This document shows positions 3,856 through 60,756 of a stretch of DNA of 64,000 nucleotides, in pieces; the stretch's first letter is position 1, and the number at the start of each line of letters is the position of its first letter. The position numbers were made by a program, and so were the translations under genes. The notes below the pieces were generated by a model, which was not told the DNA's origin, ran no database searches, and worked only from the letters and a program-made list of their open reading frames with translations. The stretch comes from Candidatus Nealsonbacteria bacterium (GTDB lineage: Bacteria > Patescibacteriota > Minisyncoccia > Minisyncoccales > RBG-13-42-11). The stretch covers positions 3,653-67,652 of the forward strand of contig JAHXGL010000001.1 in NCBI GenBank assembly GCA_019923655.1. Direction: 5' to 3'.

Positions 3856-5853
3856 ATGCAGTTGGAGCGTTATAAAAACAATCCTATTTTAGAGCCGAGA
3901 AAAGAGCATGCCTGGGAAACAGGAGGTGTTTTTAATCCAAGCGTAATTTACGAACAAGGAAAAGTCTATATTGTTTATCGGGCTTTTTCTAAAGATCATA
4001 CTTCTAGTTTAGGTTTGGCAATTAGCAAGGACGGATTTAACATTGACGAGAGATTGCCAGAACCGATTTATAAGCCGCGAGAAAGTTTTGAAAAAAAAGC
4101 TAAACCAGGGGTTTGGTCGGGATGCGAAGACCCGAGAATTACTAAAATAGGCGACCGGTTTTATATGTGTTATACCGCGTTTGATGGAGTTCATCCAACC
4201 AGAGTCGCTCTAACATCAATAAAAGTAAAAGATTTTCTCGCTTTTCGCTGGAAATGGGAAAAACCGGTTTTAATTTCACCGCCAGGCATAGATGATAAAA
4301 ACGCTTGTATTCTGCCTCAAAAAATTAAAGGGAAATATTTTATTTTTCATCGATTTCATCCCTGTATTTGGATTGATTCAGTTAAAGATTTAAATTTCAA
4401 AAAAGACACTTGGATTAAAGGAAGTTGTTGGTTTATGCCGAGAACGGATAAATGGGATAGCCGAAAAATCGGCATTGGTCCGGTGCCGATAAAAACAAAA
4501 CAGGGCTGGCTTTTGATTTATCACGGCCTTTCTGAACAAGATAGAAAATACCGATTAGGCGCAATGCTATTAGATCTTAAAGACCCTTCCAGGGTTCTTT
4601 GCCGGCCAAATAATTTTATTTTGGAACCGCAGCAGGACTACGAAAAACAAGGAGTAGTTCCTAATGTTGTTTTTACTAATGGAGCAATAATAATTAAAGA
4701 CCAATTGTTTATTTATTACGGCGCCGCGGACAATGTTATCGGACTTGCCACAGTGAATCTAAATGAATTTTTGAAAGAATTAACGGAAAAAGCTGATTAT
4801 AAAATTGAACTTATAAGGCACAAACGAAACCCTATCTTAAAACCAAATATAAAAAATTGGTGGGAAGCTGATGCTGTTTTTAATCCTTGCGTTATCAAAG
4901 ATGAAAAAAACATTTTTCATATGGTTTATCGGGCTCATTCTTCTCAATTTTTTGATGAACATAAACCAGGATTTCATATTTCTTTTTTAGGATATGCCAA
5001 TAGTAAAAATGGAAGTACTTTTAAAAATCGTCGTCTATTTTTTAAGCCAGAGCATAAATGGGAATATTTTGGCTGTGAAGACCCAAGAATAACTAAATTT
5101 GGAAATCAGTACTTTATTTTTTATACCGCTGTTTCTCATTTTCCTTCTTCGCAAGAATATGTTAAAATAGCCTTAGCAACAACTAAGGACTTTAAAACAA
5201 TTACCAAGCATGGCATTGTAACGCCATTTAACGCAAAGTGCATGGTTCTTTTTCCGGAAAGAATCAACGGAAAAATGGTAGCAATTTTTGCTTTAGAGCC
5301 GGACTTGCGGCCATTAAAGACGGGTATTGCTTTTTTTAACGATATTCAAGAAATTTTATCTCAAGAATATTGGGATAAGTGGTGGATTGAAAAGGACCAA
5401 CAAGGTAAAAATATTTTATTTCCCCCAACGCCAGATTTAGAAATTGAAGTGGGCGCCCCTCCTATAAAAACAAAACAGGGCTGGTTGCTGATATTGGCTT
5501 ATATCACAGGAATTAGTCTTCCTGGTCCAGATGTTTTTGGCATCGGCGCCGCGCTTTTAGACCTAAAAGATCCAACTAAGATATTAGCTAAAAGCGATTA
5601 TCCTTTTTTAATTCCTAAAACGCAATACGAGATAAGATATATGCGGCCGAATGCTATTATCTTTCCTTCTGGCGCGGTTGTGAAGAACAAAGAATTATTA
5701 GTCTATTATGGGGCAGGCGACAAAATTTGCTGTTTAGCATTTTATAATTTAGAAAGATTAATAAAAATTTTATTAAAAAGCTCATCTCGCGCTTACTCTT
5801 CAAAATTCGCAGTCTTCCAAACCACGAAGGGGTTTGGAAACGAAGAATTTTGA
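3856..5853 (+). CDS. Tandem-domain glycoside hydrolase family 130-like protein (two GH130/DUF377 modules)
   Basis: NPILEPR..WE..GVFNPSVIYEQGKVYIVYRA and GCEDPRITKIGDRFYMCYTAFDG in the N-half; a second GCEDPRITKFGNQYFIFYTA module in the C-half. The last ~24 codons are encoded by a palindromic repeat. Confidence 0.8.
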   Translation: MQLERYKNNPILEPRKEHAWETGGVFNPSVIYEQGKVYIVYRAFSKDHTSSLGLAISKDGFNIDERLPEPIYKPRESFEKKAKPGVWSGCEDPRITKIGDRFYMCYTAFDGVHPTRVALTSIKVKDFLAFRWKWEKPVLISPPGIDDKNACILPQKIKGKYFIFHRFHPCIWIDSVKDLNFKKDTWIKGSCWFMPRTDKWDSRKIGIGPVPIKTKQGWLLIYHGLSEQDRKYRLGAMLLDLKDPSRVLCRPNNFILEPQQDYEKQGVVPNVVFTNGAIIIKDQLFIYYGAADNVIGLATVNLNEFLKELTEKADYKIELIRHKRNPILKPNIKNWWEADAVFNPCVIKDEKNIFHMVYRAHSSQFFDEHKPGFHISFLGYANSKNGSTFKNRRLFFKPEHKWEYFGCEDPRITKFGNQYFIFYTAVSHFPSSQEYVKIALATTKDFKTITKHGIVTPFNAKCMVLFPERINGKMVAIFALEPDLRPLKTGIAFFNDIQEILSQEYWDKWWIEKDQQGKNILFPPTPDLEIEVGAPPIKTKQGWLLILAYITGISLPGPDVFGIGAALLDLKDPTKILAKSDYPFLIPKTQYEIRYMRPNAIIFPSGAVVKNKELLVYYGAGDKICCLAFYNLERLIKILLKSSSRAYSSKFAVFQTTKGFGNEEF

Positions 5854-5856
5854 AAG
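5796..5856. repeat. Nested palindromic module: outer arms CTCTTCAAAATTC/GAATTTTGAAAG, inner arms TCTTCCAAACC/GGTTTGGAAAC
   Basis: Read directly; supplies the C-terminal tail and the TGA stop of the 3856..5853 ORF. Confidence 0.85.
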
Positions 5857-5864
5857 TTTAGTTT

Positions 5865-7631
5865 ATGCTTAATTTTAATATACAAATTAAAAATTATTTT
5901 CAAAATCCGATTTTATTTTCTAACCAGAAAGGAGCTCCAACAGTTATTGCAAAAGAGAAAAAGGTTTTTTTATTTTTTGAAGAAAACAATGCCATCTATT
6001 TAGCAACAAGCAAGGATGGAATAAATTTTAAAAAATATAATAAAAATCCTTTAATAGAAGAAAGCGGCGCAAGATGCGCAAATCCGAAAATAACAAAAAT
6101 AAAAAGAAATTATTTTTTAATTTATGAGGCTAAAAAAAAGAACAGCAGTAAAACTTATCTTTACTTCGCTCTTTCAAAGAATCTTTTTAAGTGGGAAAAG
6201 ATGGGCGAAATTAGCCCAAGGAAGAAATTGAGCATTATTCAAGATTATAAATATAATGGAAAAATATGCGGTTATTTTATTGGCAGAGACTCAATAAAAA
6301 TAGCTTTTTCAAAGAACTTAAAAAAATGGCAAGTTAAAGTTAAAAAAGAACCAATATTTTTTACAGAAAAGAATGAAAACATAAAAACAGGGCCAAGTCC
6401 GATTGTCGCAGAACAGGGAATTTTGTTTTTTTATAATACAGTTAATTCTGCTAAAAAAGGTACCAAATATTATTCTTGGAACTTGATTCTTTTTGATAAA
6501 GAAAATCCTGGTAAAATTTTATGGAGAACGAAAGAACCTATTTTTAGTTCAGAAAACAATAAAATTACTCTTGGCGGTTTAGTAAAATTTCAAGGAAGAT
6601 GGCTTTTGTATTATTACAGCGAGATTGATAAGGGTATTAATATTGCTTTTCTGGATTTTTGGGAAGATATCAAAGAAGAAGAATCTTCCAAATTAATAAA
6701 GTTTGAGGGCAATCCAATTTTAGATCCCAGGAAAATATATTTTTGGGAAGATAAGGCCTGTTTTAACGCTGCCGCTATTTATGAACAAAACAAAGTCTAT
6801 ATTGTTTATCGTTCCATTACTAAAGACGATGTTTCGGTTTTGGGTTTGGCAGTAAGCAATGATGGGATTAATATTTCTGAAAGATTAACCGAGCCAATTT
6901 ATGTTCCCAGAGAGCCGTTTGAAATAAATCCTTCCGGTAAAAGAACATATTATATTGGGTTTTCTGGCAGCGGACATTCAGGGTGCGAGGATCCCAGAAT
7001 AGTAAAAATAGAAGACAGATTTTATATGACTTATGTGGCGTTTGACGGCTGTAATCCTCCCCGGATTGCCTTGACCTCAATAAAAGAGAGCGATTTTTTA
7101 AATTATCAATGGAATTGGGAAAAACCAATTTTAATTTCTCCTCCGGGCATAGGCGATAAACAAGCTTGTATTTTTCCGGAAAAGATTATTGGAAATTATA
7201 TTTTTCTTCATCGGATTTTTCCTGATATTTGGATGGATTCTGTCCCGGATTTAAAGTTTAAGGATAGATGGTTAGCTGGAAATATTTTCGCAAGACCGAG
7301 AGAAAGTAAATGGGATAGTTTAAAAATTGGCGCCGCTGCCAGTCCAATAAAAACAGAAAAAGGCTGGCTTCTAATTTATAATGGAGTTAGTAAAAAAGAT
7401 TATAAATACAAAATTGGCGCTATGCTTCTTGATTTGAAAGACCCGAGCCGAGTTTTAGCCAGGAGCAATCAGCCAATTTTAGAGCCTGACAACGAGAAGG
7501 AGGGAAATATTGTCTATTCTTGCGGCTCAGTAATTATCAAAGACCGGCTTTATGTTTATTACGGTCAGAATGATTATAGTTTAGGCGTTGCAACAGCCAA
7601 TTTAGGCGAATTTCTACAAAAGTTGTCTTAA
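5865..7631 (+). CDS. GH130-like protein: divergent N-terminal beta-propeller-like half plus a canonical GH130 C-terminal half
   Basis: The C-half (NPILDPRKIYFWEDKACFNAAAIYEQNKVYIVYRS; GCEDPRIVKIEDRFYMTYVAFDG) is closely paralogous to the N-half of the preceding gene. Confidence 0.75.
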   Translation: MLNFNIQIKNYFQNPILFSNQKGAPTVIAKEKKVFLFFEENNAIYLATSKDGINFKKYNKNPLIEESGARCANPKITKIKRNYFLIYEAKKKNSSKTYLYFALSKNLFKWEKMGEISPRKKLSIIQDYKYNGKICGYFIGRDSIKIAFSKNLKKWQVKVKKEPIFFTEKNENIKTGPSPIVAEQGILFFYNTVNSAKKGTKYYSWNLILFDKENPGKILWRTKEPIFSSENNKITLGGLVKFQGRWLLYYYSEIDKGINIAFLDFWEDIKEEESSKLIKFEGNPILDPRKIYFWEDKACFNAAAIYEQNKVYIVYRSITKDDVSVLGLAVSNDGINISERLTEPIYVPREPFEINPSGKRTYYIGFSGSGHSGCEDPRIVKIEDRFYMTYVAFDGCNPPRIALTSIKESDFLNYQWNWEKPILISPPGIGDKQACIFPEKIIGNYIFLHRIFPDIWMDSVPDLKFKDRWLAGNIFARPRESKWDSLKIGAAASPIKTEKGWLLIYNGVSKKDYKYKIGAMLLDLKDPSRVLARSNQPILEPDNEKEGNIVYSCGSVIIKDRLYVYYGQNDYSLGVATANLGEFLQKLS

Positions 7632-7673
7632 CTTGAATTCTTATATGTTTGTTTCAGAAAAACAGAGAAATGA

Positions 7674-7759
7674 GCCGAGGTGGTGAAATTTGGCTAGACA
7701 CGCAGTCTTCAGAAGGCTGTGAAGGAAACTTCATGCGGGTTCGAGTCCCGCCCTCGGCA
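7674..7759 (+). tRNA. tRNA-Leu(CAG), long variable arm, no encoded CCA
   Basis: Manual cloverleaf: acceptor GCCGAGG/CCTCGGC, anticodon loop TTCAGAA, T-loop TTCGAGT. Confidence 0.9.
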
Positions 7760-7762
7760 TAT

Positions 7763-7785
7763 CTGTCGGGGTCAAACCCCGACAG
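7763..7785. repeat. Palindrome CTGTCGGGGTCAAACCCCGACAG, the reverse-complement orientation of the 2005-2052 units
   Basis: Read directly, 4 nt after tRNA-Leu. Confidence 0.85.
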
Positions 7786-7813
7786 CCTAAAATAATATAA
7801 GAATTAGGTATTT

Positions 7814-9526
7814 ATGATAAGAGAAAAATCTCTCAAAATTATTCCCCTTGGCGGCTTGGGCGAGGTTGGCCGCAATATGACGCTTCTTGAATATAATGAG
7901 GCGGTTTTAATTATTGATATGGGACTTAAAATGCCCGAAGAAGATACGCCGGGCATTGATTATATTGTGCCAAACATTAATTATTTGAGTTCTTTGAATA
8001 AACAAAGCAATGGTTGGCGAAACAGAAAACAAAAGAACATTTTAGGGATAGTTTTTACCCATGGCCATTATGACCATATTGGCGCGATTCCGTATTTAAT
8101 TGAAAAAATTTGGAGTCCTTCTCTGCAATTTTTCGCTTCCCCTTTGACGCGAGGAATAATTCTAAAAAGGCAGGAAGAGTTTCCCGAGCACCCTCAGTTG
8201 AAAATAAATGAAATTAAACACGGTTCTATAATTGAATTAGGTCCTTTTCGGATTGAGTTTTTCAGGCAAAATCACAATATTCCCGACAATTTTGGATTAT
8301 TTATTGAAACGCCAATCGGCAATATTTTACATACTTCTGATTTCAAGTTTGACTTAAATCCGGTAAATGAGCTACCGACTGATTTTCAGAAATTGAGAAC
8401 GCTTTCTGAAAAGAAAATTCTGCTTTTAATGTCAGATTCTACTGGCGCTGAAGAAAATGGCCATTCTTTGTCTGAAAAAACAATTGAAAAAAACCTAGAA
8501 GAAATTTTTCAACGTTCTTCGGGCAGGATTATTGCCGCTACTTTCGCTTCTTTGATTAATAGAATCCAGCAAATTATTTTTTTGTCTGAAAAATATGGAA
8601 GAAAAGTAATAATTGAAGGTTATTCAATAAAGAACAACATGGAAATGGCTGAAAAACTGGGGCGGATTAAATCAAAAAAGGGGACAATTATCAAGGGAAA
8701 AGAAATTGAAAATTATCCTGATTCAAAAATAACTATCTTATGCACCGGCGCCCAGGGAGAGAACCAAGCTGTTTTGATGCGGCTCGCCCAAAAAAGACAC
8801 GCAAGATTACGTCTTAAAAGCGGCGATTCTATTATTCTTTCTTCTTCTGTTATTCCCGGGAATGAAAGGACAGTCCAGGCGCTTAAAGACGCAATCTTGC
8901 GTCAAGGAGTAAAAGTTTTTCATTATAAAATGATGGATATTCATGCTGGCGGTCACGCCCAAGAACAGGAGCTAAAAGAAATGATTAAAATTACCAAGCC
9001 GAAATTTTTTATCCCTATTCATGGCCAATACTCAATGTTAGTTGCTCACGCTGAGATAGCCCGAGACACGGGAATGCCAGAGAAAAATATTGTTATTATT
9101 GAAAACGGCCAGATTATTGATTTAACCCCAAAAACAATTTTTATTAAAAGAACAAAAGTCCCCTCAAACTATGTAATGGTTGACGGTTTAGGCGTTGGTG
9201 ATGTTGGCGAGGTGGTTTTACGAGACAGGCATATGCTGGCTCGGGACGGAATGTTTGTTATTGTAGCAGTAGTAGATAAGCAAAGCGGCAAAGTAATCGG
9301 TTCTCCCGATGTAATCTCAAGGGGCTTTATTTATCTAAGAGAATCAAAGCAATTATTAAAAGAGACCAGACAGCAGGTAATAAAAATTGTTGACCAAGCA
9401 GTAACTTCAGGAGGAACGATTAATTGGATTTATGTCAAAGATGAAATGAGGAATAAAATCGGACAGTTTTTCTACTCTAAAACCAAAAGAAGGCCAATGA
9501 TTTTACCTGTTGTTATAGAAGTATGA
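7814..9526 (+). CDS. rnj: Ribonuclease J (metallo-beta-lactamase/beta-CASP)
   Basis: KIIPLGGLGEVGRNM, THGHYDHIGAIPYL, HASGHA-like HAGGHAQ. Confidence 0.9.
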   Translation: MIREKSLKIIPLGGLGEVGRNMTLLEYNEAVLIIDMGLKMPEEDTPGIDYIVPNINYLSSLNKQSNGWRNRKQKNILGIVFTHGHYDHIGAIPYLIEKIWSPSLQFFASPLTRGIILKRQEEFPEHPQLKINEIKHGSIIELGPFRIEFFRQNHNIPDNFGLFIETPIGNILHTSDFKFDLNPVNELPTDFQKLRTLSEKKILLLMSDSTGAEENGHSLSEKTIEKNLEEIFQRSSGRIIAATFASLINRIQQIIFLSEKYGRKVIIEGYSIKNNMEMAEKLGRIKSKKGTIIKGKEIENYPDSKITILCTGAQGENQAVLMRLAQKRHARLRLKSGDSIILSSSVIPGNERTVQALKDAILRQGVKVFHYKMMDIHAGGHAQEQELKEMIKITKPKFFIPIHGQYSMLVAHAEIARDTGMPEKNIVIIENGQIIDLTPKTIFIKRTKVPSNYVMVDGLGVGDVGEVVLRDRHMLARDGMFVIVAVVDKQSGKVIGSPDVISRGFIYLRESKQLLKETRQQVIKIVDQAVTSGGTINWIYVKDEMRNKIGQFFYSKTKRRPMILPVVIEV

Positions 9527-9552
9527 CAACAAGGGGTCTGACCCCAACTATT

Positions 9553-10530
9553 ATGAAAGTATTTAGCGGTATTCAGCCAACAGGCGCGCTTCATATAGGA
9601 AACTATTTAGGAGCGATAAAACAATGGGTTGAACTTCAAGAAAAAAACGAGTGTGTTTTTTGTATTGTTGATTTGCACGCCTTAACTTCTCCTTATCAAC
9701 CCGAAACTCTGCAAAATTTGATATTGGAAAAAGCGATTGTCTATTTAGCCGCTGGAGTTAATCCTGAAAAAGCGACAATTTTCGTTCAATCAGAAGTTAA
9801 AGAACACTCTGAATTAGCTTGGCTTTTAAATACGATAACGCCAATCGGCGACTTAAACAGAATGACTCAATACAAAGAAAAATCCAAAAAATTCAAACAA
9901 AATGTTAATGCCGGACTCTTAAATTATCCAATTTTAATGGCTGCTGATATTCTTTTGTATCAAACAGATATTGTCCCTGTGGGCCAAGACCAAAAACAGC
10001 ATATTGAAATAACCAGAACCATTGCCAGAAAATTTAATCAAAAATTTGGCCAAACTTTTAAGGTTCCGGAAGCAAAACTGCCTAACGCAGGGGCTAAAAT
10101 AATGAGCTTGACCCAACCAACAAAGAAAATGTCAAAAACCGATCCGCCCGAAAGTCGCATCGGTCTTTTTGACGAGCCGGAAGAAATAAAAGCCAAAATC
10201 ATGAAAGCGGTTACCGACACTGGAAAAACGATAAAATATAACGAAAAATTAAAACCCGGGGTTTCAAACCTTTTAACGATTTATTCTTTATTCTCGGGAA
10301 AAACGGTCAAGGAATTAGAAAAGAAATTTAAAGGGAAAGGATACGCGGAGCTCAAAAAATCCTTATCAGAGCTTTTGATTAACTCTCTGGAGTCTTTCCG
10401 CCGGAAAAAGAAAGAACTCCTCTGTAGAGAAGTCTATGTTAAAGAAATTTTAGAGCAAGGCAGAAAAAGAGCCCAAATTATCGCCTCTTCTACTATCGCA
10501 GATGTCAGAAAAAAGATGGGATTAACTTAA
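9553..10530 (+). CDS. trpS: Tryptophan--tRNA ligase
   Basis: MKVFSGIQPTGALHIGNYLGA (HIGH-type) and KMSKT. The ORF track start at 9523 precedes a small GGGGTCTGACCCC hairpin, so the ATG at 9553 is preferred. Confidence 0.9.
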   Translation: MKVFSGIQPTGALHIGNYLGAIKQWVELQEKNECVFCIVDLHALTSPYQPETLQNLILEKAIVYLAAGVNPEKATIFVQSEVKEHSELAWLLNTITPIGDLNRMTQYKEKSKKFKQNVNAGLLNYPILMAADILLYQTDIVPVGQDQKQHIEITRTIARKFNQKFGQTFKVPEAKLPNAGAKIMSLTQPTKKMSKTDPPESRIGLFDEPEEIKAKIMKAVTDTGKTIKYNEKLKPGVSNLLTIYSLFSGKTVKELEKKFKGKGYAELKKSLSELLINSLESFRRKKKELLCREVYVKEILEQGRKRAQIIASSTIADVRKKMGLT

Positions 10531-10545
10531 TATCCTGGATCTATT

Positions 10546-11886
10546 ATGATTTCATTATTTGGGACAAGCGGAATAAGGGGCTCGGCTAAAGAATTTTTAA
10601 CTAATCAATTCTGTTTTGATATTGGCCGGGCTTTCGGCATATTCTTAAAAAACCATAAACAAAAAGGCAAAATAGCCGTAGGAATGGATCCTAGAAGATC
10701 CAGTCCAAGAATAAAGAGATCTTTTTCTTCAGGGCTCTTAAAAGAAGGCTACAAGGTTTCCGACCAAGGAATTGTTCCCGCTCCAGCTATGAATTATATT
10801 TTAATAGCTGATCCGGCTTTTGTTGGCAGTTGTATGATTACCGGAAGCCATATTAGATTAGATTTTAACGGGTTGAAATTTTTTGCCTTCAAAGAAGAAA
10901 TTTTAAAAAAACAGGAAAGAGAAATTGAAAATATTTACAAAAAAATCAAAGAGAGAATTCCGTTCAAACGAAAAAAAATAGAGTTCAAAAAAGAAAATAT
11001 TGCCATTAAATCTTACCGAGAAATGCTCTTAAACATAGCCAAACCGCCCTACCCTAAATGGAAGATAGTTATTGACGCTAGTAATGGCTGTCAGGTAAAA
11101 GCAATACCGACAATTCTTAAAAAATTAGGATTAAAAGTAAAAATTATAAATGGCAACCTGCAATCGGAAAAATTTATTCCCAGAGACACTGAAACCGAAG
11201 AAGCGGTAAAGGAGCTTCAAGAAAAAGTAAAAAAGGAGAAGGCGAATTTTGGAATAGCTTTTGATGGAGATGGAGACAGGGTAGTTTTTGTTGATAAAAA
11301 AGGAAGGTTTATTCCCGGAGATTATACTGGAACCCTAATCGCTAAATACAGCCCCACAGCAACCGTAGTTATCCCGACTAATGTTTCTCAAGTAGTAGAA
11401 ACCATAGGGAAGAAGATTGTTCGAACAAAAGTTGGCTCTCCTTATGTGGTTGAGGCAATGAAAAAATATAAAGCTTTTTTTGGCTTTGAAGCAAACGGTG
11501 GAGGAATTTCGGCTGAAATTATGATGAGTCGAGACGCTGGTTCTGTAACAATAAAAATTTTAAACTTATTAACCCAAAGCAAAAAAACTTTAGAAGAACT
11601 AATAAATACCCTTTCTAAATTTTTTCTTTATAGGGTCAAAATCAACTGTCCTCAAGAACTAAATCCAATTATTCTTAAAAAAGCAAAGAAGAAATTTAAA
11701 GGAATTAAAACCGAGGAAATCGACGGATTAAAAATCTGGCTTGATAAGTACGCTTGGATTCTTTTTCGGCCATCGGCTAACGCTCCGGAATTTCGGGTGT
11801 TTGCCGAAGCAAAAACCAAGGAAGAAGCTGAAAAATTAGGACAAAAAGGAATTAATTTTGTTAAATCATTGGTGAAACCTTGTTAG
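10546..11886 (+). CDS. Phosphohexomutase family protein (GlmM/ManB-like)
   Basis: GIRG N-terminus, TGSH active-site loop, FDGDGDR metal site, GFEANGG sugar loop. Confidence 0.8.
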   Translation: MISLFGTSGIRGSAKEFLTNQFCFDIGRAFGIFLKNHKQKGKIAVGMDPRRSSPRIKRSFSSGLLKEGYKVSDQGIVPAPAMNYILIADPAFVGSCMITGSHIRLDFNGLKFFAFKEEILKKQEREIENIYKKIKERIPFKRKKIEFKKENIAIKSYREMLLNIAKPPYPKWKIVIDASNGCQVKAIPTILKKLGLKVKIINGNLQSEKFIPRDTETEEAVKELQEKVKKEKANFGIAFDGDGDRVVFVDKKGRFIPGDYTGTLIAKYSPTATVVIPTNVSQVVETIGKKIVRTKVGSPYVVEAMKKYKAFFGFEANGGGISAEIMMSRDAGSVTIKILNLLTQSKKTLEELINTLSKFFLYRVKINCPQELNPIILKKAKKKFKGIKTEEIDGLKIWLDKYAWILFRPSANAPEFRVFAEAKTKEEAEKLGQKGINFVKSLVKPC

Positions 11887-11929
11887 AAATAAAACCTTTG
11901 AGAAAAATTTCTAACAAGGTAAAATAATA

Positions 11930-12162
11930 GGGTAAAGTCTGAAAAACGGACCTATTTGTTCGTAATTTAGCTTAAAGCATCAGAAGCTCAGCAATCAAGT
12001 TTCAAGTCACCGGCTGTTAAAATCCCAGCGAGATTTTACAGCCTGCGTTCTCGGCTTGTTGTCCCTCACTTTGTTCGGGAACCATGCCAACAAGCCTGCG
12101 AAAGCTGCCTTGAAACCTATTGCCTCGCTTCTGAAATCGGTCCGGGAAATCGAACCTTACCC
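11930..12162. ncRNA. Candidate structured RNA of unknown class; strand unresolved
   Basis: Nested complementary segments: GGGTAA(11930)/TTACCC(12157), CGGACC(11947)/GGTCCG(12139), CAGAAGC(11981)/GCTTCTG(12127). Also a 12-bp hairpin at 12012-12043, a 9-bp stem 12053-12061/12088-12096, and a GCGAAAGC tetraloop motif near 12097. Sits in a 282-nt non-coding gap. Confidence 0.45.
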
Positions 12163-12168
12163 AATAAT

Positions 12169-13059
12169 ATGTCTTTTTCAGTGGGTATAATTGGCTTGCC
12201 AAATGTTGGCAAATCAACTCTATTTAAGGCTTTGACTAAAAATCCTGTGGGTATTGCTGACTACCCTTTTACCACTATTCATCCCAATGTCGGGCTAGTG
12301 GCGGTTCCTGATAAAAGATTAGAAAAAATTGCTCAAGTTATTAAACCGGAAAAAATAACCCCGACTGTAATTGAGTTTGTTGATATTGCAGGCCTGGTCA
12401 AAGACGCTCATAAAGGCGAGGGTTTGGGAAATCAGTTCTTGGCCCAAATCAGAAATTGCGACGCTCTGGTTGAAGTTGTCAAAGCATTTGATAATGCGAG
12501 CAATGCAAGTATTGAAAAAGATATTGAAATAATTAAAACCGAACTGGAAAAGAAAGATTTAGAATCAAAAGAAAAAGAAAATCTTTTAAGCAAAAAGCCG
12601 ATTCTCTATGTCTTTAACATTAATGAACAAAGAACAAAGAACAATGAACAAGAATTAAAACAGATGTTTTCTTTTCCCTGTTCCTTGTTTATTGATCTTA
12701 AGCTTGAAGTAGAAATATCAGAGATGTCAGAGTCCGAAATAAAAGAATTGGGCATCGCTTCCAAGCTTGACCAAATGATTTTAAGTTGCTATGATATTCT
12801 TAGTTTGATTACTTTTTACACGATAACTCGCGGGAAAGAAACCAGGGCATGGACGTTAAAAAAAGGGTTAAGAGTGCCGGTAGCTGGTGGAATTGTCCAT
12901 TCTGATTTTGAAACCAAATTTATTAGGGCCGAAGTAATCAGCGCGCAGAAATTAATCGCAGCCGGTTCCTGGAAACAAGCGCGGGAATTAGGGCAAATCT
13001 TAACAACTGGAAAAGAGTATGTTGTAGAAGACGGCGATGTTGTAGAATTTAAAATATGA
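12169..13059 (+). CDS. ychF: Ribosome-binding ATPase YchF (Obg-like GTPase family), short form
   Basis: GIIGLPNVGKSTLFKALT P-loop; C-terminal TGS-like HSDFETKFIRAEV...VEDGDVVEFK. Confidence 0.88.
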   Translation: MSFSVGIIGLPNVGKSTLFKALTKNPVGIADYPFTTIHPNVGLVAVPDKRLEKIAQVIKPEKITPTVIEFVDIAGLVKDAHKGEGLGNQFLAQIRNCDALVEVVKAFDNASNASIEKDIEIIKTELEKKDLESKEKENLLSKKPILYVFNINEQRTKNNEQELKQMFSFPCSLFIDLKLEVEISEMSESEIKELGIASKLDQMILSCYDILSLITFYTITRGKETRAWTLKKGLRVPVAGGIVHSDFETKFIRAEVISAQKLIAAGSWKQARELGQILTTGKEYVVEDGDVVEFKI

Positions 13060-13102
13060 GCAAGGTTGAGCAAAGCGAAAATTGCGTTCTCGTTACATTC
13101 AC

Positions 13103-13531
13103 ATGAAACACTACGAAATAACTTATCTTATTTCTTCAGAAATTCCTGAACAGGAAGCTAAGAAAATTCAAGAGAAAATAAACTTTTTAATCCAAAAACA
13201 GGGAGGAGTTTTGAAAAATAAAGGTCTTTTTTTAAGAAATAAGCTGTCTTGTCCTGTTAAAAAACAGATCCAGGTATTTTTGCTTGTTTTGAAATTCCAA
13301 ATAAACCCCGAGAACCTGCTTTTTTTAGAAAAAGAAATAAAAGCTGAAAAACAAGTTTTGCGTTATTTGATATTAGCCCAAGAACCGCTTAAAGAGAAAG
13401 CAAGAGAAATGTTTCCGAAACCCTTGACAGGATTAAAAAAGCCTGTTTTGCCGGTTGCCTTAGCCGAAGAGAAGAAAGTTAAATTAAAAGAAATAGAAAA
13501 AAAATTGGAAGGAATATTAGAAGAGATTTAA
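13103..13531 (+). CDS. rpsF: 30S ribosomal protein S6 with a C-terminal extension
   Basis: MKHYEITYLIS start; position in the rpsF-ssb-rpsR arrangement. Confidence 0.8.
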   Translation: MKHYEITYLISSEIPEQEAKKIQEKINFLIQKQGGVLKNKGLFLRNKLSCPVKKQIQVFLLVLKFQINPENLLFLEKEIKAEKQVLRYLILAQEPLKEKAREMFPKPLTGLKKPVLPVALAEEKKVKLKEIEKKLEGILEEI

Positions 13532-14082: not shown

Positions 14083-14086
14083 AACT

Positions 14087-52913: not shown

Positions 52914-53486
52914 ATGATTCTATCCGACCGAGATATCAAAAAATACCTAAAAGAAGGAAAAATTAAAATTATTCCCGAGCCAAATTTTGAAGAACAATTA
53001 GGTCCTTGTTCTTTGGACTTGCATTTAGGAAATGTTTTCAAATCCTTCAAACCAACTCAATATCCATACTTAGACCTGAAAACAAAAAAGAGTTTTGAAG
53101 AAGTTATGGATGAAACAACAATAGAGGATAACGCGCCTTTTATTTTACAGCCAAAAGGGTTTGTTATTGCCGTAACCAAAGAAGAAATTATTTTACCTGA
53201 TTATATTATGGCTCGATTGGACGGAAGGAGTTCTTTGGGGAGATTGGGGCTGGTAGTTCATTCAACTGCGGCCAGGTTTGACCCTGGTTGGAAAGGGAAA
53301 GCGGTAATGGAGTTGGGCAATCTTGGGATTATGCCGATTATTTTATATGCCGGAATGAGAATTTGCGCTATAACTTTTGAGACGCTTACTAGTCCGGCTG
53401 AAATTCCTTACTTAAAACAGAAAGACCACAAGTATGCCGGACAAAATAATTCTACTGCCAGTAAACTTAACGAAGAGCCCAGATGA
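52914..53486 (+). CDS. dcd: dCTP deaminase
   Basis: MILSDRDIKKYL..., ARLDGRSSLGRLGLVVH, DPGWKG...ELGN. Confidence 0.9.
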   Translation: MILSDRDIKKYLKEGKIKIIPEPNFEEQLGPCSLDLHLGNVFKSFKPTQYPYLDLKTKKSFEEVMDETTIEDNAPFILQPKGFVIAVTKEEIILPDYIMARLDGRSSLGRLGLVVHSTAARFDPGWKGKAVMELGNLGIMPIILYAGMRICAITFETLTSPAEIPYLKQKDHKYAGQNNSTASKLNEEPR

Positions 53487-55093
53487 AACCTTTTTTAACC
53501 CGCAATCTAAAAGTCCAGTTTTTAGGGATAACTCCTGTTTTAAGAGATAAGACAGGAGTTTTAAACCCTCAACAAATTGTTGCCCTCTCAGCTCTTTTGA
53601 CTTTTAAGGGGAAGACAATAAAAAATCTCTTTAAAGAAATTAAAAACAATGGAGAGAATTTAGACGAGAAGATAAAATTAATTCTGCAAAAATCATCTTT
53701 ACGGGGACATGCCTCCATATCAACCACTCCCTCTCTTTGTTTAACCTATGAAGGAAGCAAATTTTTAGATTCTGCCTTAACTGGTATTTATTTTTCTTCT
53801 TCTCTGGTTTCTTCTGGCAGAAGAACAGGAACCATTGAAAAAGATATTGTTTTTCCGAATAAGATTTATTCCAATAAAAAAGCTAAGGGAATATATCAAG
53901 AAACTTCAGAAAAGATTATCAGATTTTTTAATTTTCTTTTATCTCAAGAGGTTAAAAAAGATGAAGCCAGCAAGATTTTACAATACGGCATTTATGGCAC
54001 CGGTATTATTCAGCTACCAATAGAAACAATTATTGGCTTAAAAAGAGAGTACCAGAGAGAGGAAAAATGGATGCCGGAAGAAGTAGGAATTTTACTCAGA
54101 AAAATAGAAAAAGAAGCTAAAAAATTAGGAATTGATTGGCTTTACGCTACCAGAGAAGCAGCGCCCAGAAATGTTTTCCCTTTTCCCAATATATTTAAAG
54201 ACCCCAAAGAAGGAAATTTGGTTAGAGGAATAAAGAAGAAAATAAAACTGGAGCAAGGAGCAAGAGTGGTTTCAACGGATATTTTGATTCCCTCCGAGCT
54301 AAAAAAGAGATTGATTAATTTAGAAAAAAAGACAAAAGAAACTTTTTCTTCTTTAAGAAAAATTAAAAAAGATTGGCAACAGCTCCTTTCTCTGAGACAG
54401 GAAATTTTGAGGGACTATAATTTAGCTTTAAGATTTAAGGTCTTGTCTTCAGCGCCCTGGCGGGTTTGGGGAGAAAAAAAGAGGCATCGGACTTGCCTTC
54501 AAGTTATTGAGTCAATTTATTATTGCGTTGATAGAGCGGCTAAAGTTTTCAGAAAATTTGAGCGGCAAATTAGAAAAGGGAAAATTAACAAGAGAATAAC
54601 AAGAGAGGTTGGGGAAGTTTTTTCTATCCCGCCATCAATAAAACAAAAACAAGAGCTTTTATCTGAATATTTATTAGTTGCGCTAAGGGCTTTTGGGGAT
54701 TATAAAAAGTTAATTAACTTAGGAATCAAACCCAAAGAAGCAATTTTTTTAATTCCCCGAGCAACCAAAATTGATATTTTACAGGAATATGATTTATATA
54801 ATCTTTTGACCGGCTACTATCCCTTGCGGCTTTGTAAGACAGCTGAAGAGGAAATGAGAAGAAATACATTGAAGGAAGTTGCTCAAATTAAAAATGTCTT
54901 GGCTAAAAAAGGCTATGGCTGGTTGAATGGGCTTATTGGTCCCAAGTGTGAGATTATTGGCTTTTGTCCGGAAGAAAAGAGCTGCGCTATGATTAAAACA
55001 TCGGTTAGAAAATATAATGATAAATTTCATCAAGAAATGAAAGAGGAATTGAAAAGATTATTTCAAGAAAATTTAAAAAACTTAGGTGAATAA
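53483..55093 (+). CDS. thyX: Long (536 aa) ThyX-family FAD-dependent thymidylate synthase-like protein: degenerate N-half, canonical-looking C-half
   Basis: N-half: LRGHASIS...EGSKFLDSALT. C-half: KKRHRTCLQVIESIYY (RHR...ES..Y) and IPRATKIDIL...YYPLRLCKTAEEEMR (the ThyX C-terminal motif). Confidence 0.7.
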   Translation: MKPFLTRNLKVQFLGITPVLRDKTGVLNPQQIVALSALLTFKGKTIKNLFKEIKNNGENLDEKIKLILQKSSLRGHASISTTPSLCLTYEGSKFLDSALTGIYFSSSLVSSGRRTGTIEKDIVFPNKIYSNKKAKGIYQETSEKIIRFFNFLLSQEVKKDEASKILQYGIYGTGIIQLPIETIIGLKREYQREEKWMPEEVGILLRKIEKEAKKLGIDWLYATREAAPRNVFPFPNIFKDPKEGNLVRGIKKKIKLEQGARVVSTDILIPSELKKRLINLEKKTKETFSSLRKIKKDWQQLLSLRQEILRDYNLALRFKVLSSAPWRVWGEKKRHRTCLQVIESIYYCVDRAAKVFRKFERQIRKGKINKRITREVGEVFSIPPSIKQKQELLSEYLLVALRAFGDYKKLINLGIKPKEAIFLIPRATKIDILQEYDLYNLLTGYYPLRLCKTAEEEMRRNTLKEVAQIKNVLAKKGYGWLNGLIGPKCEIIGFCPEEKSCAMIKTSVRKYNDKFHQEMKEELKRLFQENLKNLGE

Positions 55094-55106: not shown

Positions 55107-55712
55107 ATGATTTTAGGGGTAAAAAAACTTTTAGAGCTGGTTAAAAAAAAGCCCAGCACCAGAGCGAAGCTCGGTGCTGGACCAGTCCCGCACCGAAACA
55201 AAGTTTCTGGTGCGGGGAAATTGGTTGAAAATTTGTCTGAAAGAGAACTGAAGAGTCCTGAAGGGGCGGGCTTTGATTTAAGAATAGGCCAGTTATACCA
55301 AATCAAAGGGAAAGGATTTTTAGGGACCGAAGAAAGAGAGACGCCGAAAATGGAATTAATGGCAAAATATGAAGAAGGAAAAATTACAAAGGTATGTTTA
55401 GAACCCGGGACATATTACTCAATGAAAACAGTTGAGGAAGTTAATATGCCGAACAATCTTTTAGCCATAATGACTCCGCGCTCTACTTTATTTCGCTCCG
55501 GAGTTTACATTTTTGGCGGTCAAACTCCGCCCGGATATAAAGGCGGCTTGACAATGGGTATTTATAATTTTAGAAACGAGAAATTTGAGTTGGAAATGGG
55601 TTCGCGAGTTGTCCATATTATGTTTTTTGAAGTAAAGGGAAACACAAATTTATACCGCGGCCAATGGCAAGGCGGTCGAGTTGCCACAAAAAAGAAAGAA
55701 AAACAAATCTAA
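55107..55712 (+). CDS. dCTP deaminase/dUTPase-superfamily protein (second copy) with a 22-codon GC-rich insertion near the N-terminus
   Basis: MILGVKKLLELV N-terminus parallels dcd; GFDLRIG, TPRSTLFRSG, PPGYKGGLTMG. Confidence 0.8.
   Translation: MILGVKKLLELVKKKPSTRAKLGAGPVPHRNKVSGAGKLVENLSERELKSPEGAGFDLRIGQLYQIKGKGFLGTEERETPKMELMAKYEEGKITKVCLEPGTYYSMKTVEEVNMPNNLLAIMTPRSTLFRSGVYIFGGQTPPGYKGGLTMGIYNFRNEKFELEMGSRVVHIMFFEVKGNTNLYRGQWQGGRVATKKKEKQI
55151..55217. repeat. Two adjacent GC-rich hairpins (CCAGCACC.GAGC-GAA-GCTCGGTGCTGG and CCCGCACC-N13-GGTGCGGG), 66-67 nt in total, in frame
   Basis: Read directly; encodes PSTRAKLGAGPVPHRNKVSGAG. Confidence 0.85.
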
Positions 55713-57205: not shown

Positions 57206-57245
57206 AGAAATTAAAAGCATTCTTGAGGAGTGCCGATAATATTTG

Positions 57246-59228
57246 ATGATTTCTAAAACCGATCCAAAAATTTACAATTTAATCAAAAAAGAAATTATTC
57301 GCCAAAAAAACGGCTTGTCTTTAATTGCTTCTGAAAATTTTGCCAGCCAAGCTGTTTTAGAAGCAATGGGGACTGGCTTAAGCAATAAATATTCTGAAGG
57401 GTATCCGGGAAAGAGGTATTATGGCGGCAATGAATTTATTGACCAAATTGAAACAATAGCCATTGAACGGGCTAAAAAATTGTTCAAGGCGGAACATGCC
57501 AATGTTCAGCCCCATTCCGGCTCTCAAGCAAATGCCGCGGTTTATCTGGCGCTCCTAAATTACCGAGACAAAATTTTAGGCATTGATTTGTCAGCTGGCG
57601 GGCATTTGACCCATGGCTCTCTGGTTAATTTTTCCGGCCAGCTCTATAATTTTTCTTATTATGGCGTAGATTCTAAAACAGAAAAAGTTGACATAAGAGA
57701 AGTGGAGAAAATAGCTTTAAGGTTTTTACCAAAATTAATTATTGTAAGCACGACTGCTTATTCCCGGATACTTGAATTCAGAAAATTCAGAAAGATTGCC
57801 GATAAAGTAAAGTCCTATTTAATGGCTGATATTGCTCATATTGCCGGCTTGGTAACAGCCGGCCTTCATCCGCATCCTTTTCCTTATTGCGATGTGGTAA
57901 CGACCACTACTCATAAAACATTAAGAGGTCCTCGCGGCGGATTGATTTTATCTAAAATCAAAGACAGAATAGACCCAAGAGGGAAAATGAATTTAGCTCA
58001 GAAAATTGATAAAGCGGTTTTTCCGGGAATACAGGGAGGGCCATTAGACCATGTTATTGCCGCCAAAGCAGTTTGTTTTTTGGAAGCAATGAAGCCATCT
58101 TTCAAAAAATATCAAAAACAGATTATTTTGAACGCCAAAGCAATGGCTGATGAGTTTCAAAAACAAGGGATTAGAGTGGTTAGCGACGGGACAGACAATC
58201 ATTTAATGGTTATAGATATTTCTCCTTTTAATGTTGGTTCTAAACTAATTCAGGATGAATTGGATAAAGTCGGCATTTATGTTAATCGCAACGCTATTCC
58301 TTTTGACAAAAGACCGCCTTACAATCCTTCAGGAATCAGATTGGGTTCGCCAACCATAACAACCATGGGCTTAAGAGAAAAAGAATGTCGGCAGGTAGTG
58401 AAATTAATTGTTGCTCTAATAAAAAATATAGAAACACAGAAAATAAAAACAGAGATCAAGAAAGAGGTAAAGAAATTGGTTAAAAATTATAGAAATTGTC
58501 AAAAACGCAGTTTTAGATTAAAGAGTATCAAAATGAAAAACATTGCTAAGATTATTGACCAAACTTTTCTAAAAAAAGGAGCACTAGATGAAGAAATAAA
58601 GAAAATTGCCGAGGAAGCAAAAGAGTATAATTTTCGGGCATTTTGCGTTCTTCCGGAGCATACTGAATTAGCCAAAGAAATACTTAAACATACTGATGTC
58701 AAGGTAACTACCCTGATTGACGAACCAACAGGGGCAAGTCCTACTGAACAAAGAAAAAAAATGGTTAACAAAGCTAAAATAGATGGCAGTGATGAAATAG
58801 AATTGGTAATGAAAATAGATGATTTCAAAAATAAGAAATATAAAGAGGTTTTAGAGGACTTAGAAGAACTCTGTCCAATTCTGCCAACGAAAGTAATTAT
58901 TGGCTCGGGTTATTTGACTGATCAAGAGATAAAAAAGGCGTCAGAAATGACCAAACAAGCCAAAGCAATTTGTGTTAAAACCGCTACTGTGGATGACCCT
59001 TTGGACAGTTCAGAATTAAAAGAAAAAGCTAAACACATCAGAATAATGAAGGAAACAGCTCCTGGTTTACTAATAAAAGCGTCTGGAGCAGTCCGAACTT
59101 TAGCTGACTTAGAAATAATGCTCGCGGCCGGCGCTGATATTATTGGCACAAGCTCGGGCAAGGAAATAGTAGATGAGGCCCATGGAAAAGAGGTAAAAGA
59201 AACAAAAGACAATAGAATAGTGGAATAA
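57246..59228 (+). CDS. glyA: Serine hydroxymethyltransferase fused in frame to a DeoC-type (deoxyribose-phosphate aldolase family) domain
   Basis: SHMT: LIASENF, YSEGYPGKRYYGG, TTTTHKTLRGPRGG (PLP Lys). There is no stop codon before the DeoC-like domain, which begins at the internal ATG 58533: IDQTFLK..., VKT(A), IKASGAVRT...GADIIGTSSG. Confidence 0.85.
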   Translation: MISKTDPKIYNLIKKEIIRQKNGLSLIASENFASQAVLEAMGTGLSNKYSEGYPGKRYYGGNEFIDQIETIAIERAKKLFKAEHANVQPHSGSQANAAVYLALLNYRDKILGIDLSAGGHLTHGSLVNFSGQLYNFSYYGVDSKTEKVDIREVEKIALRFLPKLIIVSTTAYSRILEFRKFRKIADKVKSYLMADIAHIAGLVTAGLHPHPFPYCDVVTTTTHKTLRGPRGGLILSKIKDRIDPRGKMNLAQKIDKAVFPGIQGGPLDHVIAAKAVCFLEAMKPSFKKYQKQIILNAKAMADEFQKQGIRVVSDGTDNHLMVIDISPFNVGSKLIQDELDKVGIYVNRNAIPFDKRPPYNPSGIRLGSPTITTMGLREKECRQVVKLIVALIKNIETQKIKTEIKKEVKKLVKNYRNCQKRSFRLKSIKMKNIAKIIDQTFLKKGALDEEIKKIAEEAKEYNFRAFCVLPEHTELAKEILKHTDVKVTTLIDEPTGASPTEQRKKMVNKAKIDGSDEIELVMKIDDFKNKKYKEVLEDLEELCPILPTKVIIGSGYLTDQEIKKASEMTKQAKAICVKTATVDDPLDSSELKEKAKHIRIMKETAPGLLIKASGAVRTLADLEIMLAAGADIIGTSSGKEIVDEAHGKEVKETKDNRIVE

Positions 59229-59232
59229 ATCT

Positions 59233-60756
59233 ATGTATAAACCAACTCTAGGCATTGAGGCACACGTACAACTCAAGACAAAATCAAAAATGTTTTGTAG
59301 TTGTAGAAATAATCCTAATGAGCGTCATCCTAACGTCCTAATCTGTCCAACTTGCCTTGGACATCCGGGAACTCTTCCGGTTATCAATCAAGAGGCGGTC
59401 AGAAAAACGATAAAAACCGGTTTGGCTTTGAATTGCCAAATTCCCGAATATTCAAAATTTGACAGGAAAAATTATTTTTATCCTGATTTGCCAAAGGGCT
59501 ATCAGATTTCTCAATTGTATGAGCCATTTTGCAAGAATGGATTTTTGGAAATTAATGGAAAAAAAATAAGAATTCGGGAAGCGCACCTTGAAGAAGATAC
59601 CGGTAAATTGATTCACCCTAAAGGCGCTGATTATTCTTTGGTGGATTTTAATCGGGCCGGAATTCCTTTGATGGAGTTAGTTACTGAACCGGATATTACT
59701 TCAGCCAAAGAAGCAAGAAAGTTTGCTGAAGAGCTTCAGCTTATTTTAAGATACCTTGATGTTTCAAATGCTGATATGGAAAAAGGAGAGCTAAGAATTG
59801 AGGTAAATATATCTTTAACAAAAACAAGCAAATTAGGGACAAAAGTAGAAATAAAAAACATTAACTCTTTTCGCGCAGTAGAAAAGGGGATTGATTACGA
59901 AATTAAAAGACAGGCGAAAATTCTGAACAGCGGAACTAAAGTCATTCAGGAGACCAGGGGTTGGCATGATGCCAAAAAACGCACTTTTAGCCAAAGAAAA
60001 AAAGAGGAAACACATGATTACCGATATTTTCCAGAACCGGATTTGCCGTTGCTGCGAATCGCTAAAGAATTTATTCATCAAATTAAAGCTGAAATTCCGG
60101 AGCTGCCGCAGCAGAGAAGAGAGCGATTCAAAAAAGAATATGAAATAGAGGATAAAGACATAGAAATTTTTGTCTACAATAAAAAACTCGGAGAATATTT
60201 TGAAAAAGCGGCATCAGAACTTATAAATTGGGTCAAAGAAACGGAAAGAAAAAATAGCGTAGAAAAAGATGAATTTACTAAATTAGTTAAACTCTGCTCA
60301 AATTATATAATTAGTGATTTACAAGGATTAATAAAGAAAACCCCCTACCACTTTTTTGAGAAAAAAGAAGGGGGGTTGATTACTCCGGAAAATTTCGCTG
60401 AATTTGCGTGTTTGATTTATAAAGACAAAATTTCAAGTAAAATCGCAAAAATGGTTCTCTCTGAAATGTTCTTGACCGGGGCTGATCCTTCTCAAATTAT
60501 TGAAGAAAAGGAATTAACCCAAATTGCGAATGTTAAAGAACTCGCAAAAATTATAAAAGAAGTGCTTTCTAAAAACCCAAAGCCGGTTCAAGATTATAAA
60601 AAAGGAAAACAAAACGCCTTCCAATTTTTAATCGGCCAAATAATGGCACAGAGCAAAGGAAAAGCAAATCCTCAAATAGTCCGTAAACTGCTTCTCCGCA
60701 GAATGAGTGAGGCAACGGTCACGGGAATGATAACCAAAGAATCAACAGGGCTTTAA
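59233..60756 (+). CDS. gatB: Asp/Glu-tRNA(Asn/Gln) amidotransferase subunit B
   Basis: GIEAHVQL.T.SKMFC.C, CPTCLGHPGTLPV, NRAG.PL.E.V..PD. Confidence 0.93.
   Translation: MYKPTLGIEAHVQLKTKSKMFCSCRNNPNERHPNVLICPTCLGHPGTLPVINQEAVRKTIKTGLALNCQIPEYSKFDRKNYFYPDLPKGYQISQLYEPFCKNGFLEINGKKIRIREAHLEEDTGKLIHPKGADYSLVDFNRAGIPLMELVTEPDITSAKEARKFAEELQLILRYLDVSNADMEKGELRIEVNISLTKTSKLGTKVEIKNINSFRAVEKGIDYEIKRQAKILNSGTKVIQETRGWHDAKKRTFSQRKKEETHDYRYFPEPDLPLLRIAKEFIHQIKAEIPELPQQRRERFKKEYEIEDKDIEIFVYNKKLGEYFEKAASELINWVKETERKNSVEKDEFTKLVKLCSNYIISDLQGLIKKTPYHFFEKKEGGLITPENFAEFACLIYKDKISSKIAKMVLSEMFLTGADPSQIIEEKELTQIANVKELAKIIKEVLSKNPKPVQDYKKGKQNAFQFLIGQIMAQSKGKANPQIVRKLLLRRMSEATVTGMITKESTGL

Follow-up and report, generated by a model that had tools for sequence, protein, structure and literature searches.

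Short hairpin modules within and between genes

We analyzed a 64,000-nt stretch of DNA from a Candidatus Nealsonbacteria bacterium (assembly GCA_019923655.1, contig JAHXGL010000001.1; hereafter, the window), in which short palindromic modules of about 33 nt, each able to fold into a hairpin, lie inside genes, at their ends, and between them. The window is AT-rich (35-38% GC), and its proteins most closely resemble proteins from Candidatus Nealsonbacteria and from further Parcubacteria, as judged from the names of the best-matching sources. Pfam scans of the window's open reading frames (ORFs) identified the host genes as two GH130 genes (3856-5853 and 5865-7631), rpoC (17479-21228, minus strand), a gene for a metallo-beta-lactamase (MBL)-fold hydrolase (34619-35383), gyrA with an intein (35773-39678), a pilin-like gene (ORF 39719-40438), tsaD (42006-43109, minus strand), pheT (46864-48966), a dCTP-deaminase/dUTPase-like (dut-like) gene (55107-55712), and gatB (59233-60756).

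We located the modules by an inverted-repeat search, a tandem-repeat search, and direct reading of the sequence. Perfect hairpins with a stem of at least 9 bp and a loop of 3 to 9 nt occurred at 21 loci, compared to 4.8 on average, and at most 8, in 20 dinucleotide shuffles of the window, and hairpins with a stem of at least 11 bp occurred 6 times, compared to 0.4 in the same shuffles. Seven modules that were folded as single strands yielded z-scores between -3.3 and -8.0. The original prediction, made on this window from its letters and a list of its ORFs, had named seven hairpin loci; hairpins were indeed found at or near each of these positions, and they are more numerous than the shuffles would lead one to expect.

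The modules fall into several sequence families. Family A (AGTCTTCCAAAyCC-loop-GGrTTTGGAAACGA) occupies three window loci; family B (GAAACTTTCAAAACTC-nnn-GArTTTTGAAGAGT) occurs in pheT and also provides the outer arms of a tail on a GH130 gene; family C (GCCCCGTTAGATAA-ttttt-TTATCTAACGGGGC) is found in rpoC; family D (CTGTCGGGGTTTGACCCCGACAG) is intergenic at two loci; family E, with AGGAGTGTG... arms, lies at the ends of two genes; family F comprises two GC-rich hairpins in the dut-like gene; and family G is one GC-rich hairpin in tsaD. The two family-D loci are an array with a 25-nt period at 2005-2076, which holds two full units and partial units, and a single hairpin at 7763-7785, directly 3' of tRNA-Leu (7674-7759). 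These loci, as well as the hairpin families at 3738-3765 and 40509-40538 and at 26776-26823 and 29910-29957, had been absent from the original prediction. Its proposal that several families share one unit length held in part: units of exactly 33 nt are found mainly inside ORFs, while outside ORFs the length ranges over 31-34 nt and successive units are spaced 32-34 nt apart. A 32-nt tandem repeat in the phosphoglucomutase gene (10898-10959) was rejected as a module, being an A-rich direct repeat that has no palindrome.

In-frame inserts in four genes

Four modules lie in the interior of genes, namely rpoC, pheT, the dut-like gene, and tsaD, where they had been predicted to sit without breaking the frame. 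All four proved to be insertions relative to orthologues, with lengths of 102, 66, 66, and 33 nt, respectively, and without stop codons. The inserted peptide segments were missing from nearly every homologue compared (present in 0 of 58 for pheT, 0 of 40 for rpoC, 0 of 2 for the dut-like gene, and 1 of 41 for tsaD). In alignments to reference proteins, the insertion points fell in gaps or variable regions of the phenylalanyl-tRNA synthetase (PheRS) beta chain, the RNA polymerase beta' chain, and TsaD.

The pheT insert (48232-48297, plus strand) consists of two 33-nt family-B units (GAAACTTTCAAAACTCnnnGArTTTTGAAGAGT) and encodes residues 457-478, ETFKTHRVLKSETFKTLRILKS, which read as two near-repeats (ETFKTHRVLKS ETFKTLRILKS). 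This 22-residue segment is absent from all 58 aligned homologues, including a fragment from a closely related strain (L001, GCA_002581605.1) whose flanks are 99.8% identical to those in the window. A look-up of the exact PheT sequence of the window returned no recorded entry. The insert forms a gap relative to the solved PheRS beta chain 2rhq_B, and in an AlphaFold2 (AF2) model of PheT, residues 460-478 have a predicted confidence score (pLDDT) below 50 and lie between a confident helix and a confident strand. To its left, the insert is flanked by AAACTCTA-TTTTGAA, which resembles a degenerate unit.

The rpoC insert (20350-20451, minus strand) is made of three units of ~33 nt plus 3 nt and corresponds to beta' residues 260-293, RSSREDYTGQSLLDKNYLTEQAPLDKNYLTGQVL, a segment of 34 residues; the module has a fold z-score of -7.0. 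Two of its units are near-perfect hairpins with 14- and 11-bp stems, GTTAGATAA..TTATCTAAC, which differ from one another by a compensatory C-G to T-A change, and the third has diverged but keeps the CCCCG..CGGGGCAA ends. The segment lies between aligned blocks of solved beta' chains, in a variable helical region N-terminal to the PEWM motif, and Thermus beta' has a large extra segment of its own in the same interval (query residue 295 aligns to chain residue 489). We considered and rejected a location at the tip of the sigma-binding clamp coiled coil, given the position N-terminal to PEWM.

The insert of the dut-like gene (55152-55217, plus strand) joins two 33-nt hairpins that differ from each other, one with a 12-bp and one with a 13-bp stem and with loops of GAA and AAA, and encodes residues 16-37, PSTRAKLGAGPVPHRNKVSGAG. 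It is GC-rich relative to the genome, has the lowest fold z-score (-8.0), and is absent from both available orthologues, which come from two other Nealsonbacteria (L188 and L189; 77-79% identity). The tsaD insert (42669-42701, minus strand) is a single 33-nt hairpin, GCCTCGAC-tcgct-GTCGAGGC, with a fold z-score of -5.0; it encodes residues 137-147 (AQPRLAVEARQ) in a hypervariable loop that holds different inserts in other lineages, and it forms a gap relative to Thermotoga maritima TsaD. The only one of the 41 TsaD homologues to have it is a 99%-identical strain copy (P0241), and in the strain contig L191 the module is decayed and 3 nt, i.e., one codon, longer. A second tsaD hairpin, at 42210-42251, was rejected as a module: it encodes the conserved ...ILGGGV motif and is ordinary coding sequence.

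C-terminal tails and an array upstream of a pilin-like gene

Two further genes had been predicted to carry modules as C-terminal tails, and in both the protein is indeed extended, by 26 residues for GH130 and by 30 residues for the MBL-fold hydrolase. The GH130 tail (5799-5854, plus strand) is a composite palindrome that makes up the last 18 codons and the stop of the gene at 3856-5853. Its outer, family-B-like arms are TTCAAAATTC/GAATTTTGAA, and one family-A unit (5810-5843) is nested in the loop between them. The tail, which overshoots the end of the neighboring paralogue by 26 residues and has a fold z-score of -4.9, is also present in the strain contig L074. In the MBL-fold hydrolase gene, three tandem family-A units of 32-33 nt (35278-35377, plus strand) encode the last ~35 residues; among the 150 representative homologues listed, most stop at about residue 222 of the 254 of the query, and the window protein is 30 residues longer. 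These tails are 3'-end elements that replaced or displaced a stop codon.

Upstream of the pilin-like gene, where a module had been placed in the 5' untranslated region, we found an array of two family-A units and partial 12-nt copies (39780-39866, plus strand) between the end of gyrA at 39678 and ATG 39872. This ATG is the probable start of the gene (MKNILSKS...); should translation begin at the upstream ATG 39719 instead, the array would be read in frame. The last hairpin of the predicted range (60339-60377, plus strand) turned out to lie inside gatB rather than tsaD, and we doubt that it is a module: relative to the solved GatB 3al0_B it contributes no more than ~4 residues, it folds weakly (z = -2.6), and has no further copy among the window and related sequences compared.

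Units are palindromic, abut head to tail, and are open in the frames in use

Alignment of 22 distinct family-A units revealed an 11-bp stem in which 90% of cells are paired. Five of the 11 pairs are changed on both sides and none on one side only, with almost no G-U pairs. These paired changes, together with the compensatory change between the rpoC units, indicate that palindromy is maintained or regenerated, and the near-absence of wobble pairs, in what is a small sample, fits a symmetry that acts at the level of DNA. Tandem units are direct repeats that abut head to tail, and neighboring units are able to pair with each other.

The reading frames of the families differ in their freedom. Families A, F, and G are free of stop codons in all six frames, and families B and C have one open frame per strand, which is the frame in use. 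The half-sites of family A and an 8-nt half-site of family D occur inside modules only within the 64-kb window, and those of families B and C have one to three extra single copies. Half-sites are thus almost never found alone, which argues that the units are not akin to uptake sequences.

Modules recur in related contigs and genomes

Copies of families A and F and of B-like units exist elsewhere; that is, the units are not unique to the window. Family A is the best sampled. It occurs on 14 metagenome contigs of the DDBJ projects BBPD, BBPE, BBPF, and BBPG, the same projects that contain L001, with more than 30 units in about 19 clusters on the related contigs and 32 non-redundant units in the window and nine related contigs. 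One of the 14, L074, is a 99.1% copy of window positions 1-11929. Five of the 14 contigs stop no more than about 50 nt away from a family-A unit, as expected for repeats that break assemblies.

About 12 of the 19 family-A clusters are non-coding, and many of these are intercistronic in conserved operons: we found copies between fusA and tuf, rpsL and rpsG, and infA and rpsM, and after tsf, prfA, and ftsW. Three clusters lie in frame inside well-supported ORFs. In the FtsZ protein of a relative, a six-unit array adds about 70 residues to the C-terminal linker, and the conserved C-terminal end of the protein (...PAFLRRKKI) is still in frame past the array; a Kelch-repeat protein contains one unit after its membrane helix; and a 472-residue ORF contains three units. 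All three clusters are antisense, in numbers too small to interpret. Across window and relatives, the copies inside ORFs are always a multiple of three in length, stop-free, and situated in variable loops, linkers, or C-termini. Most family-A copies are intergenic, and the in-frame copies are the surviving minority.

In related genomes of the Candidate Phyla Radiation (CPR), the homologues of PheT, TsaD, and beta' contain many rare inserts of 8-47 residues, and the same insert peptides turn up again at other positions and in other proteins (our sampling of homologues favored unusual lengths, and the insert fractions are not rates). In the two Nealsonbacteria L188 and L189, these inserts are hairpin-forming and have 59-72% GC in DNA of 36-37% GC. 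In L188, one GC-rich family occurs both between genes and inside pheT (10981-11120 and 1126-1219), and in L189, one family occurs in proS, pheT, and two gyrB sites within 20 kb (2965-3035, 11623-11670, 12185-12250, and 14498-14593). Peptides such as YNPPTTSSHSP... and AEPSAHLTPHPAKRGSAY recur across proteins.

The family-A pattern gave 67 single matches in unrelated taxa and no multi-copy genome among the GTDB species-representative genomes, which places the genome of the window outside that set; the sole CPR match, L031, is plain coding sequence. Matches in viral contigs and in metagenomes other than the BBP projects were conserved coding sequence of unrelated organisms that forms no hairpins, and the dut module had no match in viral contigs.

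Modules differ between strains and between genomes

Four comparisons point to movement. First, the 66-nt module of the dut-like gene matches at 64 of 66 nt an insert (1376-1441) in the pheT gene of L190, another Nealsonbacterium and one with a PheT that shares only about 61% identity with that of the window. Second, L120 has a 53-nt family-B-like palindrome with arms of about 20 nt, located 5 nt past a stop codon, which L095 and L133 lack at a site that is otherwise 99.4% identical. Third, L074 has one unit fewer than the window in the family-D array at 2005-2076, and the tsaD module of L191 is, as noted above, decayed and one codon longer. Fourth, the pheT site that is filled in the window is without insert in L001, although this pair of sites is not a clean one. 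An ATT flanks the L120 insert, which is ambiguous as a target-site duplication, and TA..TA is found at the borders of many single family-A copies.

Two of the strain contigs are scaffolds with N runs (L001, 1130-1252; L191, reverse complement, 643-815). Upstream of pheT, L001 is 89% identical to the window over 207 nt and then ceases to match, a pattern suggestive of mixed strains or of recombination in the L001 assembly.

Origin of the modules

We consider it likely that the modules are several families of short, hairpin-forming dispersed repeats, i.e., mini-palindromes resembling repetitive extragenic palindromic sequences (REPs) or miniature transposable elements with inverted repeats (MITEs), which are spreading, or have recently spread, within and between Nealsonbacteria genomes as units of ~31-34 nt in singles, tandem pairs, or arrays. 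Insertion itself would not be aware of frame. Rather, in a small and gene-dense genome, purifying selection would retain only those coding copies that preserve the frame at sites where about 11 extra residues per unit are tolerated. Such a selective filter on frame and tolerance would account for the shared lengths of 33, 66, and 99 nt, and a multiple-of-three filter acting on elements of ~32 nt is the simplest explanation of the common 33-nt length inside ORFs, one that calls for no frame-aware mechanism. The inserts are probably translated rather than excised, to judge from the preserved frames, the absence of stop codons, and the C-terminal peptide of FtsZ. Arrays may lengthen and shorten by slippage between self-complementary units, their instability following from the ability of adjacent units to pair. 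As for the mover, our leading guess would be a hairpin-recognizing single-strand transposase that acts in trans, in the way that the REP-associated tyrosine transposase (RAYT) does for REPs. If the modules have a cellular role at all, that of REP-type intercistronic stem-loops is the more likely one.

Several observations weigh against this explanation. Pfam scans of the 56 main window ORFs (all except short ORFs nested in or overlapping larger genes) and of 20 neighbor ORFs on related contigs found no transposase, RAYT, Cas, or Nop-domain protein; seven of the window ORFs, six of them without a match in the other scans, were scanned at E <= 1, and these too gave no Nop-domain match. At the dut, pheT, and tsaD sites, no target-site duplication stands out. 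The pair of filled and empty pheT sites is unclean: at the junction, the window and L001 disagree at about 25 nt besides, and L001 is a scaffold with an N run. The known range of family A comprises one lineage and one sequencing project, with no GTDB species representative. That the inserts are translated is, moreover, something we infer. Lastly, families C (rpoC) and G (tsaD) are each known from one locus, and for these two a local origin may apply.

Such a local origin, in which slippage or template switching on existing short inverted repeats is followed by tandem duplication and no mobile element is involved, would fit the differences in array length between strains, the pairing of adjacent units, the single-locus families, and the left flank of the pheT insert with its likeness to a degenerate unit. 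As a general account we find it improbable: it does not explain why family A sits at about 19 unrelated loci, why the dut module reappears almost letter for letter in the pheT gene of another genome, or how a whole 53-nt palindrome can be present or absent at an otherwise identical site.

Similarly unlikely is that the modules are functional RNA or regulatory elements, whether terminators, mRNA-stabilizing or processing stem-loops, or orphan guide arrays of the tandem interspaced guide RNA (TIGR) or CRISPR type, with coding copies that are functional rather than tolerated passengers. Many family-A loops are of the GNRA type (GAAA, GCAA) in the orientation of the flanking gene, and 9 of 12 non-coding clusters are co-oriented with the neighboring gene, but the 9:3 bias is not significant. 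A terminator scan of positions 1-20000 flagged no module and returned a total count equal to the shuffle expectation, and copies separate genes that are transcribed together in the str operon, a place in which a terminator would do harm. A 2026 preprint reports arrays of in-frame stem-loop units inside the tas genes of CPR bacteria (bioRxiv 10.64898/2026.09.09.750476), yet no Nop/Tas or Cas protein was found in the scanned window ORFs, the unit arms are mutually complementary and covarying with no unique spacers, and the 14-16 nt between a would-be box C and box D are too short for two spacers of 8-10 nt. The modules matched no Rfam family (only tRNAs were found), and the almost purely Watson-Crick variation of the stems, with no G-U, fits symmetry at the DNA level.

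Chance palindromes, or artefacts of assembly or amplification, can hardly be the explanation, since, apart from the ordinary or weak hairpins in tsaD (42210-42251) and gatB, the hairpins are four- to fifteen-fold above shuffles, independent assemblies of four samples, as well as JGI data, contain the modules again, and every coding copy keeps the frame.

We put forward more tentatively, as a possibility that falls somewhat short of an even chance, an extended form of the dispersed-repeat explanation. The modules would then represent an undescribed class of ultra-short mobile hairpins with a unit of ~33 nt, in many families across Nealsonbacteria and perhaps Parcubacteria more widely, which pass from one genome to another, divergent one and regularly become fixed in essential proteins (beta', PheRS, GyrB, ProRS, TsaD, and FtsZ) as blocks of 11 translated residues. 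They would be a major overlooked source of lineage-specific insertions and length variation in CPR proteins, with no mover of a known kind found nearby.

Comparison with known repeats and significance

REPs and the bacterial interspersed mosaic elements (BIMEs) that they form are imperfect palindromes of about 20-40 nt, which lie 3' of genes or between the genes of operons, in several families per genome. REPs are extragenic by definition, their clusters in BIMEs alternate in orientation, and RAYT is the cognate transposase. The modules share with them the size, the mainly extragenic position, the occurrence as singles or clusters, and the multiplicity of families. Unlike REPs and BIMEs, the tandem units of the modules are direct, and several copies lie inside ORFs and are probably translated. 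No RAYT was found among the 56 main window ORFs and the 20 neighbor ORFs.

The GC clusters of yeast mitochondria and the translational-bypass (byp) elements are short mobile hairpins, GC-rich in an AT-rich genome and found within coding genes. With lengths of about 30-55 nt and GC-rich hairpins in coding genes, they match the inserts of L188 and L189 and the dut module. A byp element, however, breaks the frame and is skipped by the ribosome, whereas the window inserts keep the frame, are free of stop codons, and lack matching take-off and landing codons: the flanking codons of the four inserts do not match.

The original prediction likened the modules to Rickettsia palindromic elements (RPEs), which are palindromes of about 150 bp (100-150 bp) specific to Rickettsia (PMC10969869). 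This likeness is supported as one of behavior, not of membership. As with RPEs, there are several families of palindromes, which occur between genes and unusually often in frame in unrelated housekeeping genes, where a peptide is added without loss of the protein (PMC10969869); both are predicted to form stable hairpins, both give dispersed in-frame copies with a family-specific peptide, and both reside in the small genome of a host-dependent bacterium. By size and host, and probably by sequence, the modules are not RPEs: their units measure 31-34 nt and their inserts 33-102 nt, they are modular and tandem, they are probably unrelated in sequence, they occur in a CPR host, and, in the best-sampled family, they are mostly intergenic.

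MITEs occasionally yield in-frame fusions and C-terminal extensions (PMC10969869). With bacterial MITEs such as Correia, ERIC, Coxiella QMITE2, and Nezha elements, the modules have in common that they are non-autonomous, form hairpins, prefer 3' untranslated regions, and have terminal inverted repeats, here with the whole element palindromic. A usual MITE, in contrast, is 100-500 bp long and has a target-site duplication and a related insertion sequence (IS), where a module is one palindrome of 30-50 nt with no clear duplication.

TIGR arrays consist of in-frame stem-loop units in tas genes of CPR bacteria, located in disordered protein regions, and box C and box D of each unit enclose a pair of unlike spacers, the units being situated within or next to a tas gene that encodes a Nop domain (bioRxiv 10.64898/2026.09.09.750476). 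The modules resemble them as hairpin repeat units in frame within CPR coding sequence and differ in their self-complementary arms, the lack of spacers, the absence of a tas gene among the window ORFs scanned, the housekeeping nature of the host genes, and the mere 14-16 nt between their CCA and TG motifs. In contrast to CRISPR repeats, the units abut without spacers and differ from one another, and in contrast to DNA uptake sequences, their half-sites are not over-represented as single copies in the window. On such feature tests, we rejected the identity of the modules with TIGR arrays, with CRISPR, with uptake sequences, and with bypass elements. In the literature searched, we found no description of such elements in CPR housekeeping genes, and none in the description of Minisyncoccus.

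The finding is not a new principle. For protein evolution, it would mean that selfish or semi-selfish DNA adds ready-made peptide blocks to beta', a tRNA synthetase, a tRNA-modification enzyme, and, in a relative, FtsZ, and such tolerance of inserts is unexpected in bacteria that have some of the smallest and most streamlined genomes. For genomics, the repeats end contigs, shift stop and start calls, and add non-homologous segments to proteins that serve as markers in CPR phylogenomics. That divergent genomes have 66-nt modules of almost the same sequence in different genes points to an exchange of DNA among CPR lineages, which is of interest given the presumed reliance of these bacteria on DNA uptake. 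The mechanistic question that the modules raise is what moves a 33-nt hairpin without an evident transposase.

Further features of the window

The gyrA intein carries a LAGLIDADG homing-endonuclease domain (Pfam Intein_splicing, LAGLIDADG_3, and Hint_2), and in L189, gyrB (12153-17453, 1766 residues) has two intein-splicing matches. Two window ORFs contain large extra regions for which we have no explanation. The serine hydroxymethyltransferase (SHMT) ORF (57243-59228) is 661 residues long, with the SHMT domain spanning residues 4-389 only, and the ThyX-like ORF (53483-55093) is 536 residues long, with the Thy1 domain at 324-471 only; the latter has the same length in L188 and L189.

The copies of the 48-nt direct repeat at 26776-26823 and 29910-29957 contain a GC-rich hairpin (GCGGCGC-GAA-GCGCCGC) and flank a D12-class DNA methylase (27605-28786) and two ORFs without a family match. 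The second copy lies 30 nt from tRNA-Gly (29987-30061), and a second methylase and a HincII-like endonuclease are found just beyond the repeats (24972-26671). These repeats may mark the edge of an integrated restriction-modification island. ARAGORN called a tRNA-Ile with anticodon TAT at 31441-31516. The pseudouridine-synthase ORF (30713-31501) contains this tRNA gene and another at 31332-31405, and its start is probably over-called as two tRNA genes lie inside it.

Perfect or near-perfect heptamer tandem repeats occupy intergenic positions upstream of genes (3791-3826, 21251-21335, and 50974-51004). They include AAGGTAG, repeated five times before a GH130 gene, TAGAAGG and TCTACAT (five times) just upstream of rpoC, and CTACATT, repeated 4.4 times after gyrB; the CTACAT core recurs at two loci. 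Finally, the start region of the pheS ORF (46067-46112) contains a 9-nt in-frame tandem repeat, GAATAAAGA, in five copies, of which the strain contig L191 has three, so that its copy number varies within the population.

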